15,560 nt of DNA from Candidatus Micrarchaeota archaeon (GCA_043805855.1 JAZDHP010000006.1:1-15560); one strand, 5' to 3'. Shown: positions 14,313 to 15,560, numbered from the stretch's first letter. Made by a program: numbers and translations. Notes: generated by a model not told the origin, from the sequence alone.

Positions 14313-15167
14313 ATGCAACTTGAAATTCACCCATCGATAAAGCCACGCGTGCGACAACTTAACGCACTTGCTAAGGAAATGATAGAAAGTTGCGATTCGC
14401 CGGCAAATGTGCAGTTTCGATTTGGAAATAACGTAAACCACAATGAAATAGCTTTTCCAGCAACAAACAAAAGAAACAGAGTGCTTCAAATTATTGCGTT
14501 TAACCAACGAGCTGAACCAAAGAGCGCAAGAGAAGTACAGCTTGAAACTTGGCATGAAACTGAACGCACGAGTGACGAAGAAAGTCTCCCTTACATATTT
14601 GAACTGCCAAACGCATCAATACCAACTGCGTTACGCGACGCGTGGGATCGCACTGAAAGCGAAGCGATAAAACAACTTCAACTTAAAGAAGGGCAACACG
14701 TACTAGAACTAGGCCCAGGAAAAGGAAGCGCAATAGCGAAGATATTACGAACTAAAGCCAAAGTAACTGCAATTGACCATTTACCGGCAGTTACTGCTAA
14801 ATTACAACGACAATACGCACCTTACATTCAAAATGGGCAACTAAAGTTACACACGGGGCAATACACTGAAACAACAAGGGCTAGTCAATGGCGCCACGGC
14901 GAAATGGACCACGTGGTTTCATTCTGGGCAACTAACCAACATCCATTTCCACAAAACGTGTTCAAAATGGTACGCGCTGCGTTAAAACCAGGCGGCACTT
15001 ACACCTTTGTAGAAGCTACTCCCTTTTACGACCACACAATCGCGCAGTTGAAAAAAGCTGGGCTACAAGTTGAAAAAGTAGAAGTTAAGGAAACCGTACC
15101 AAAAATACCAATAGATGGCAAAAAAGTAGAACTTTACACAACAGTAATAACCGCAGTAAAAGCGTAA
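14313..15167 (+). CDS. Class I SAM-dependent methyltransferase with unassigned ~100-aa N-terminal region
   Basis: Motif I VLELGPGKG, motif II VTAID, MDHVVS and RAALKPGGTY. Confidence 0.85.
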   Translation: MQLEIHPSIKPRVRQLNALAKEMIESCDSPANVQFRFGNNVNHNEIAFPATNKRNRVLQIIAFNQRAEPKSAREVQLETWHETERTSDEESLPYIFELPNASIPTALRDAWDRTESEAIKQLQLKEGQHVLELGPGKGSAIAKILRTKAKVTAIDHLPAVTAKLQRQYAPYIQNGQLKLHTGQYTETTRASQWRHGEMDHVVSFWATNQHPFPQNVFKMVRAALKPGGTYTFVEATPFYDHTIAQLKKAGLQVEKVEVKETVPKIPIDGKKVELYTTVITAVKA

Positions 15168-15200
15168 AAACTATTTACATCAAACAAAAAACCAAACTGC

Positions 15201-15208
15201 TTTTAAAC
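15201..15208 (+). promoter_or_regulatory. TATA box of the tRNA gene
   Basis: TTTTAAAC lies 34-27 nt upstream of tRNA position 1, which implies a short 5' leader. Confidence 0.6.
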
Positions 15209-15249
15209 TTGCAATAACAAAACAATTACAATATAGCCCCGTCGTCTAG

Positions 15250-15313
15250 AACCGCCTTTTTCTTTTTTAAAGAAAAAGGCCTGTTCGGCCCAAAAAGAAA
15301 AGCGGTCAGACAA
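15250..15313 (+). other. tRNA intron 1 (position 15/16, D-loop), 64 nt
   Basis: Central helix GTCT(15244-47)/AGAC(15308-11), bulges AG^A and AA^T, outer pairs TC/GG, and inner stem ACCGC/GCGGT with one extra C (relaxed BHB). Confidence 0.88.
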
Positions 15314-15336
15314 TGGTCAAGGATACGGGCCTTTGG

Positions 15337-15402
15337 AAAAAGGCCCTCTCATAAAGCCAGAGGTCTAAAAGGCCTGCGGCGATTGAGCGGCCTTTTAAGG
15401 CA
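15337..15402 (+). other. tRNA intron 2 (canonical 37/38), 66 nt
   Basis: Strict BHB: helix CTTT(15331-34)/AAGG(15397-400), bulges GG^A and CA^A, inner stem AAAAGGCC/GGCCTTTT. Confidence 0.92.
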
Positions 15403-15423
15403 AGCCTGCGACAGCGGTTCGAA

Positions 15424-15481
15424 CGGCTTTTCTTTTGAGAAAAGAAAAGACCGAGGGAAAAGAAAACCCTCAAACTGAAAA
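15424..15481 (+). other. tRNA intron 3 (position 59/60, T-loop), 58 nt
   Basis: Helix TTCG(15418-21)/TGAA(15476-79), bulges AA^C and AA^T, closed by the T stem outside and G15425-C15475 inside. Confidence 0.9.
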
Positions 15482-15519
15482 TCCGCTCGGGGCTATATTT
15501 TTCTTATACGTGAAACAAA

Positions 15520-15560
15520 ATGGACTGCATTTTCTGCGAGATTGTAAAGGGAAAAATACC
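15520..15560 (+). CDS. HIT-family protein, 5' end only
   Basis: Not in the ORF track. ATG 15520 reads MDCIFCEIVKGKI(P), the characteristic CxFCxIxxGxIP N-terminus of HIT hydrolases. Runs off the window. Confidence 0.85.
   Translation, partial: MDCIFCEIVKGKI

Follow-up and report, generated by a model that had tools for sequence, protein, structure and literature searches.

The 261 nt at positions 15235-15495 (+) of the window, which here means the whole 15,560 nt stretch of DNA analysed, were confirmed by in-silico splicing and comparison with relatives as a genuine tRNA-Gln(UUG) gene in four pieces, with three introns of a predicted protein-spliced type. The reading that we favour, with a probability of about 0.9, is that this locus would be the organism's sole functional tRNA-Gln(UUG), expressed as one precursor whose three bulge-helix-bulge (BHB) introns are spliced by EndA and RtcB. 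In composition, the locus consists of four GC-rich pieces alternating with three AT-rich, hairpin-forming inserts. The exons measure 15, 23, 21 and 14 nt (73 nt in total) and the introns 64, 66 and 58 nt, making 188 of the 261 nt intron, and all of these lengths agreed exactly with the original prediction. The introns interrupt the D-loop at 15/16, the anticodon loop at 37/38 and the T-loop at 59/60.

15235..15249 (+): exon 1, tRNA positions 1-15, with the acceptor 5' strand, U8, the D-stem 5' strand, A14 and G15.
15250..15313 (+): intron 1, 64 nt at 15/16 in the D-loop, containing a U-rich/A-rich hairpin at 15255-15279.
15314..15336 (+): exon 2, positions 16-37, with the remaining D-arm, the anticodon stem 5' strand, the anticodon UUG and G37.
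15337..15402 (+): intron 2, 66 nt at the canonical 37/38 site, with BHB geometry.
15403..15423 (+): exon 3, positions 38-59, with the anticodon stem 3' strand, a 4-nt variable loop, the T-stem 5' strand and the T-loop TTCGAA.
15424..15481 (+): intron 3, 58 nt at 59/60 in the T-loop, containing hairpins at 15427-15449 and 15453-15471.
15482..15495 (+): exon 4, positions 60-73, with the T-loop end, the T-stem 3' strand, the acceptor 3' strand and A73.

When the exons were joined in silico, ARAGORN identified the spliced 73-mer as a tRNA-Gln(ttg) of 73 nt and 63 % GC with a regular cloverleaf. The first pair A1-U72 and the discriminator A73 are present in this product, and CCA is absent from the encoded 3' end. 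The exons are colinear within one 261-nt locus, which places the gene outside the split and permuted tRNAs. The four-piece structure originally proposed was thus borne out by ARAGORN's acceptance of the spliced product, with which the output of a custom finder and an uninterrupted orthologue, both described below, agreed.

On the raw window, ARAGORN reported no tRNAs and Rfam reported no families at gathering thresholds, in line with the expectation that standard finders would miss the gene. Nine Rfam matches at E values up to 10 in the region 15100-15560 were rejected as chance, being far below gathering scores and mutually unrelated. No group I or group II ribozyme core was found at the Rfam gathering score, and the inserts are only 58-66 nt long. 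The custom finder enumerates candidate introns of BHB-like form and then fits a generic cloverleaf across them with up to four jumps. Applied to a 418-nt region while blind to the coordinates originally proposed, it returned exactly the same three introns. Among 200 dinucleotide-preserving shuffles of this region, one passed the cloverleaf filters and none yielded a tRNA accepted by ARAGORN. A fully relaxed BHB definition, allowing one helix mismatch and 4-nt bulges, made the finder output noisy.

Each of the three junctions was found to have a 4-bp central helix between two 3-nt bulges on opposite strands. The central helix H is formed by the four exon bases preceding the last two of the exon, which pair with the four intron bases preceding the last two of the intron; h and h' denote the outer helices.

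15244-15247 / 15308-15311 (+): helix of the intron 1 BHB, with bulges 15248-15250 and 15312-15314 and h' 15251-15255 / 15302-15306.
15331-15334 / 15397-15400 (+): helix of the intron 2 BHB, with bulges 15335-15337 and 15401-15403.
15418-15421 / 15476-15479 (+): helix of the intron 3 BHB, with bulges 15422-15424 and 15480-15482.

For intron 1 the helix is GTCT/AGAC without G-U pairs and the bulges are AG|A and AA|T, flanked by a weak h of 3 bp and an h' of 5 bp with a one-base offset. Intron 2 is of the strict hBHBh' type, with helix CTTT/AAGG (one G-U pair), bulges GG|A and CA|A, an h of 5 bp provided by the anticodon stem and an h' of 8 bp. Intron 3 is of the relaxed hBH type, with helix TTCG/TGAA (one G-U pair), bulges AA|C and AA|T, an h of 5 bp provided by the T stem and an h' of only 1 bp. 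All three therefore possess the outer helix (h or h', at least one) expected of a BHB intron. Cutting after the second nucleotide of each 3-nt bulge, the rule first proposed for this locus, does give junctions 15/16, 37/38 and 59/60 and a complete cloverleaf. An alternative intron 1 of 65 nt had the same finder score as that of 64 nt, but the uninterrupted sequence ...GTCTAG-TGGTC... of two relatives (G003 and G014) decides for 64 nt. Because of the offset h' of intron 1 and the 1-bp h' of intron 3, these two introns would depend on an enzyme of relaxed specificity. The free-energy fold of the whole precursor was more stable than those of shuffles (z = -4.48), with the acceptor stem and the intron hairpins paired; the unconstrained minimum-free-energy fold did not reproduce all three BHB motifs.

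The same gene was then sought in 40 relatives by blastn, and the custom finder was run on the fetched loci. In G014, from another family of the same order, an uninterrupted 73-nt tRNA-Gln(UUG) was found that is identical to the predicted product at 70 of 73 nt, and two of the three differences form a compensatory change of the T-stem pair 49-65 from A49-U65 to G49-C65. Among members of the same genus, G003 has no intron 1, its exons 1 and 2 being fused precisely at 15249|15314, and retains a 37/38 intron (48 nt, of different sequence) and a 59/60 intron (61 nt). G002 has three introns of 37, 63 and 61 nt, of which the 37-nt intron 1 has no detectable similarity to intron 1 of the studied gene. 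Intron 3 is conserved in both congeners. Exon 1 is identical in G002, G003 and the uninterrupted G014 gene, and alignment of the three congeners (the studied genome, G002 and G003) showed all 73 exon bases to be identical while the introns vary. A single 37-nt intron at 15/16 was found in G020. For the CUG isoacceptor, introns were found at 15/16 and 37/38 in G024, at 37/38 only in G019 and at three sites in G001. In all three congeners tRNA-Gln(UUG) is also followed by the same gene downstream. Taken together, the graded intron series, the invariant exons and this shared neighbour argue strongly against pseudogene decay, assembly error or chance. In the window this downstream gene is an ORF (15521-15560, +) starting at 15521 with MDCIFCEIVKGK..., 26 nt past the tRNA, and running off the window end; its presence after the tRNA in G002 and G003 supports orthology of the loci.

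No second Gln(UUG) gene was found in the assembly, which is 92 % complete, when it was scanned for Gln-type acceptor pairs combined with the D-arm motif. Two loci of this type were present, the studied one and C45:18147-18401 (-). The latter is a tRNA-Gln(CUG) with introns at the same three sites when aligned with the UUG gene; its D-loop intron appears as 14/15 in the finder output and is counted there in the census below, but in our view this is the 15/16 site cut in an alternative way. At this completeness, the studied locus is likely, but not certainly, the sole Gln(UUG) gene of the organism. ARAGORN called a second Gln(ttg) at C5:75326-75448 (-), which was rejected as it is really a tRNA-Leu(UAG) once a D-loop intron of 36-37 nt is removed. 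This tRNA-Leu(UAG) lies at the end of contig C5 (75327-75447, -), and its reverse complement opens contig C8 (1-120), showing that the two contig ends overlap.

To place the gene within its genome, tRNA genes were counted by standard and BHB-aware searches. Across the 92 %-complete genome, Rfam gave five tRNAs above cut-off and ARAGORN, with introns allowed, gave 11, one of which was misidentified. These low counts bear out the suspicion that many tRNAs had been overlooked. For the BHB-aware census, the finder was run over 577 ORF-free regions (114 kb), followed by genome-wide anchoring on T-arm and acceptor pairs. This yielded 21 loci with good stem scores that were accepted by ARAGORN after splicing, including one doubtful locus on C60; clusters with low scores (8-10) were omitted. 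For annotation, the BHB-aware search therefore recovers at least 21 tRNA genes against five by Rfam and 11 by ARAGORN.

Introns were present in 20 of the 21 reconstructed genes, with one intron in eight, two in six and three in six (one of them doubtful); the only uninterrupted gene was tRNA-Thr(UGU). The 38 introns of the census have a median length of 62 nt (range 24-127), and their positions include 59/60 (n=13), 37/38 (n=10), 15/16 (n=3), 22/23 (n=3) and 53/54 (n=2). Besides the studied gene, 15/16 introns occur in tRNA-Val(GAC) and tRNA-Val(UAC), and in Gln(CUG) if it is read against the UUG gene. The earlier impression that three introns of about 60 nt, one of them at 15/16, look unusual needs tempering given this median, the recurrence of the 15/16 site and the six three-intron genes among 21: within its host genome the arrangement is typical rather than exceptional.

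Outside the 21, a looser finder setting gave a tRNA-Ser(CGA) with introns at 37/38 and 59/60 and a tRNA-Asp(GUC) at C32:14426-14740 (+) with introns at 53/54 and 59/60, both in the T-arm, the same arrangement as in the published ARMAN-2 tRNA-Pro(GGG). A tRNA-Ala(UGC) locus was also located. About 12-16 further interrupted tRNA loci are evident for which the finder gave no solution or only low-scoring ones; the unsolved or low-scoring loci lie on C17, C9 (Ile(GAU) and Glu), C58, C60, C31:37-251, C21, C35, C29 (Cys), C53 (Ala(CGC)), C46 (Gly(GCC)), C10 (Trp), C26, C32 (Pro(UGG)), C8:9848 and C56. The census is accordingly a lower bound.

Pieces of all three introns matched many places in the host genome and its relatives. 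The genome holds 67 copies of a hairpin with the pattern C-TTTTCTTT-loop-AAAGAAAA-G, of which 58 are in ORF-free DNA and most of the other nine are tRNA loci overlapped by spurious ORFs. In 23 of the 67 cases the hairpin directly follows the T-loop motif GTTCRA, defining a family of 59/60 introns in 23 tRNA genes. Its members are built alike, with the U-rich/A-rich hairpin first, then a second hairpin whose loop is GGGAAAAGAAAA, and ...GAAAA|TC at the end. A 5-bp T stem is formed across the intron in 21 of the 23 and all four helix pairs in 18 of the 23. Nucleotide 57 pairs with its intron partner as G-C in 10 members, A-U in eight and G-U in two, and is unpaired in three; this covariation independently supports the BHB at intron 3. 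Intron 3 itself falls into the 59/60 family and shares 93 % identity with the T-loop intron of another tRNA gene, C58:2492-2548. Intron 1 belongs to a second hairpin family present at several tRNA positions, and its first 51 nt have a copy of 94 % identity at C53:12956-13006. A strict version of the hairpin pattern occurred 32 times in the studied genome (G000; one match for a reversed-pattern control), 17 times in G002, 12 in G013 and 10 in G018, and had no copies in 20 of the 41 genomes of the same order searched.

In the intron hairpins (15255-15279, 15427-15471 and those of most introns of the genome), a U-rich strand, CUUUUCUUUU, is paired with an A-rich one. A second A-rich tract, AAAAGAAAA, regularly comes after these hairpins, in the loop of a second hairpin or single-stranded, which permits alternative pairing. 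The U-rich/A-rich hairpin together with this second tract may be the working part of the intron element.

Intron 2 contains a different dispersed repeat, which the BHB does not need.

15356..15396 (+): conserved cassette GCCAGAGGTCTAAAAGGCC...GGCCTTTT of about 41 nt inside intron 2.
Cassette copies in the studied genome: C10:14007-14047; C17:8628-8668 (-); C21:13213-13251; C28:13085-13124; C29:47722-47762 (-); C44:6532-6573; C45:18262-18301; C9:21683-21778.

Across its copies the cassette is about 41-45 nt long, with the pattern GCCAGAGGTMTAAAAGGCC-TGCGGC-variable-GAGCGGCCTTTT. Eight regular copies and one interrupted copy are present in the genome and three in the fetched loci of relatives, and the cassette is near-identical in congeners. 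It lies in sense orientation in intron 2 of Gln(UUG), inverted in the Gln(CUG) intron and in the G001 orthologue of that gene, and also in the D-loop intron of a Ser/Leu-type tRNA on C21. At other tRNA genes it precedes position 1 by 1-3 nt, and a TATA-like GGTMTAAAAGG stands about 33 nt ahead of the tRNA. Covariation was absent among 11 copies, so no RNA structure is proposed for the cassette, which is missing from intron 2 of G003. It may be a portable promoter or leader, or a mobile hairpin.

A further element was noted outside the introns. Downstream of two tRNA genes, at C9:30790-30880 and C32:6130-6200 (also C8:560-610 and C45:23330-23450), a GGCCACGCCTGGCC-hairpin-GGCATGGC element is followed by a repeat of the 12-14 nt that end the tRNA, as if an insertion had duplicated the tRNA 3' end.

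The presence of the splicing enzymes was assessed by profile searches. A Pfam PF01974 search identified EndA as a 388-aa open frame on contig C10, with catalytic and N-terminal domains (PF01974 and PF02778). Residues 9-388 align to residues 10-387 of PDB 4FZ2 (E = 9.1e-131), the epsilon2 homodimeric EndA of ARMAN-2 (PMC3488258). In that enzyme the catalytic triad is Y236/H251/K282, and K161 in an ARMAN-specific loop confers broad specificity (PMC3488258). Equivalents of all four residues are conserved here, by hand count on the 4FZ2 alignment rather than by structure, the contexts FRLYFPG, EWMHSKH, VKKTF and GTYKAK matching those of Y236, H251, K282 and K161, respectively. The protein is a single polypeptide of about 390 aa that aligns end to end with ARMAN-2 EndA (4FZ2), as expected of the epsilon2 type, to which it was assigned. 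ARMAN-2 EndA cuts strict as well as relaxed BHB motifs in vitro, a 59/60 hBH intron among them (PMC3239211). The relaxed-specificity EndA originally postulated is thus supported by full-length homology to the ARMAN-2 epsilon2 enzyme (E = 9e-131). RtcB is encoded on C59. There, in C59:12806-15532 (-), RtcB profile positions 1-50 and 45-426 are matched about 1.4 kb apart within one 960-aa frame, which suggests that the frame may hold an intein or another large in-frame insert.

Candidate expression signals flank the gene.

15201..15207 (+): TTTTAAA, a TATA-like box and candidate promoter whose first base lies 34 nt upstream of tRNA position 1.
15498..15502 (+): T5 run directly 3' of the gene, a candidate archaeal oligo-T terminator.

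Similar signals accompany the other genes of the census, with TATA-like hexamers starting at -36 to -30 upstream of many of the 21 (10 motif matches) and a T run within a few bases 3' of most of them. In the favoured model, one precursor of about 265 nt would be transcribed from the TATA-like box to the T run past position 73, and each intron with its flanking exon bases would fold as a bulge-helix-bulge. Homodimeric epsilon2-type EndA would cut both 3-nt bulges of each motif, RtcB would presumably ligate the four exons into the 73-nt tRNA, and CCA would be added after splicing. T4-T6 runs, which can terminate transcription in other archaea, also occur inside the introns of the gene, with T5 and T6 in intron 1. 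Together with the promoter-like cassette, they give more complex expression a small probability.

One such mode would be a tRNA split in cis, in which the T runs of intron 1 terminate a first transcript, the cassette of intron 2 starts the 3' half, and the two halves pair and are trans-spliced. The placement of the signals is suggestive: intron 1 holds both a T5 and a T6 run, the sense cassette of intron 2 ends 6 nt before exon 3, and cassettes stand 1-3 nt before other tRNA genes with the TATA-like GGTMTAAAAGG about 33 nt upstream. However, the cassette has the opposite orientation in the paralogous Gln(CUG) gene and the G001 orthologue of that gene, and is not required because intron 2 of G003 is without it. 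T runs are present in all introns of the genome, so that read-through must be usual, and a transcript begun about 3 nt ahead of the 3' bulge would lack the h' strand of intron 2. We consider a split in cis improbable.

Rarer still, in our estimation, is the chance that this is a dead tRNA gene broken by small, MITE-like hairpin repeats and merely spliceable in appearance. That the inserts belong to dispersed repeat families would fit such decay, as would similar hairpins outside tRNA bodies, for example beside duplicated tRNA 3' ends. A dead gene is nevertheless difficult to reconcile with 73 of 73 exon bases being identical in three congeners while the introns diverge, with the placement of every insert so as to form a 4-bp helix and two 3-nt bulges, or with the covariation of helix H across the 59/60 family. 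No other Gln(UUG) gene was found in the genome to replace it, and the same verdict would have to extend to 20 of the 21 tRNA genes reconstructed. A cloverleaf forced from unrelated DNA by chance, or a misjoining of repeats in assembly, has a negligible probability. Three free introns do allow many spliced products, and the region is repeat-rich, but none of the 200 shuffles gave a tRNA, exon order and downstream gene are repeated in the independent assemblies of G002 and G003, and the gene is uninterrupted in G014. The functional, three-intron gene spliced from one precursor is thus the reading retained below.

The gene joins the known multi-intron tRNAs of ARMAN-type archaea and Thermoproteales. 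Multi-intron tRNAs have been reported in Crenarchaeota, Nanoarchaeum, Korarchaeum, ARMAN-1 and ARMAN-2 (PMC4033280); for this phylum both they and the epsilon2 EndA are already published, with the maximum number of introns per tRNA gene given as three (PMC3239211). The closest case is ARMAN-2 (Candidatus Micrarchaeum acidiphilum; PMC3239211; Hirata et al. 2012, PMC3488258), which has the same type of EndA as the studied genome. Of its 43 tRNA genes 56 % are disrupted (Fujishima et al. 2011, PMC3239211), compared with 20 of the 21 genes reconstructed here. The passages on ARMAN-2 that were compared name no three-intron tRNA-Gln and no 15/16 site, and they describe no conserved 59/60 intron family of about 60 nt.

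In Thermoproteales, as here, up to three BHB introns occur per tRNA gene and are missed by standard finders (Sugahara 2008 and Fujishima 2010, via PMC4090602 and PMC4033280). Similar intron sequences in tRNAs of different identity are another shared trait, which in Thermoproteales has been read as transposition (Fujishima 2010, via PMC4090602 and PMC4033280). Thermoproteales, however, belong to another phylum and have an (alpha-beta)2 EndA rather than the epsilon2 type, and relative to theirs the introns studied here are long (median 62 nt) and built round a U-rich/A-rich hairpin. The split and tri-split tRNAs of Nanoarchaeum equitans and Caldivirga maquilingensis rely on the same BHB-dependent endonuclease and ligase chemistry (PMC4090602, PMC4033280), but their pieces lie at separate loci and are separately transcribed, whereas the exons studied here are colinear within 261 nt. 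Relative to the parts of the literature compared, the disruption of 20 of 21 genes, an intron size uniformly near 60 nt and a 59/60 family of 23 copies go beyond what has been described.

Incomplete tRNA sets in new DPANN genomes have been taken as a sign of undetected disrupted genes (Kaneta et al. 2018, PMC5829648). Readings of metabolism or codon usage in DPANN genomes such as the studied one that rest on standard tRNA calls will be wrong. On the retained reading, the cell would depend on splicing for nearly every tRNA, including the only tRNA-Gln(UUG) found, tying survival of the lineage to one broad-specificity endonuclease. The versions of the gene with no, one, two and three introns, together with the intron families, form a clean comparative series for intron gain and loss. 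It is conceivable, though we lean against it, that the structured, multi-copy families of which the three introns are copies are still on the move. One family would then have colonised 59/60 in at least 23 tRNA genes, that of intron 1 would land at several tRNA positions, and the promoter-like 41-nt cassette would have entered intron 2, oppositely oriented in the two Gln genes. If so, the genus may be a live system for BHB intron gain, an idea prompted by the precise presence or absence of intron 1 between congeners and by the occurrence of the strict hairpin pattern 32 times in this genome and not at all in 20 of 41. The routes of gain to be separated would then be reverse splicing into conserved loop sequences and hairpin insertion at the DNA level.

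The Micrarchaeota phylum label of the genome is consistent with the EndA match to ARMAN-2. Sequencing runs containing words of the stretch, none of them on record as RNA, comprised five groundwater DNA runs, with a word share of 0.04-0.06.
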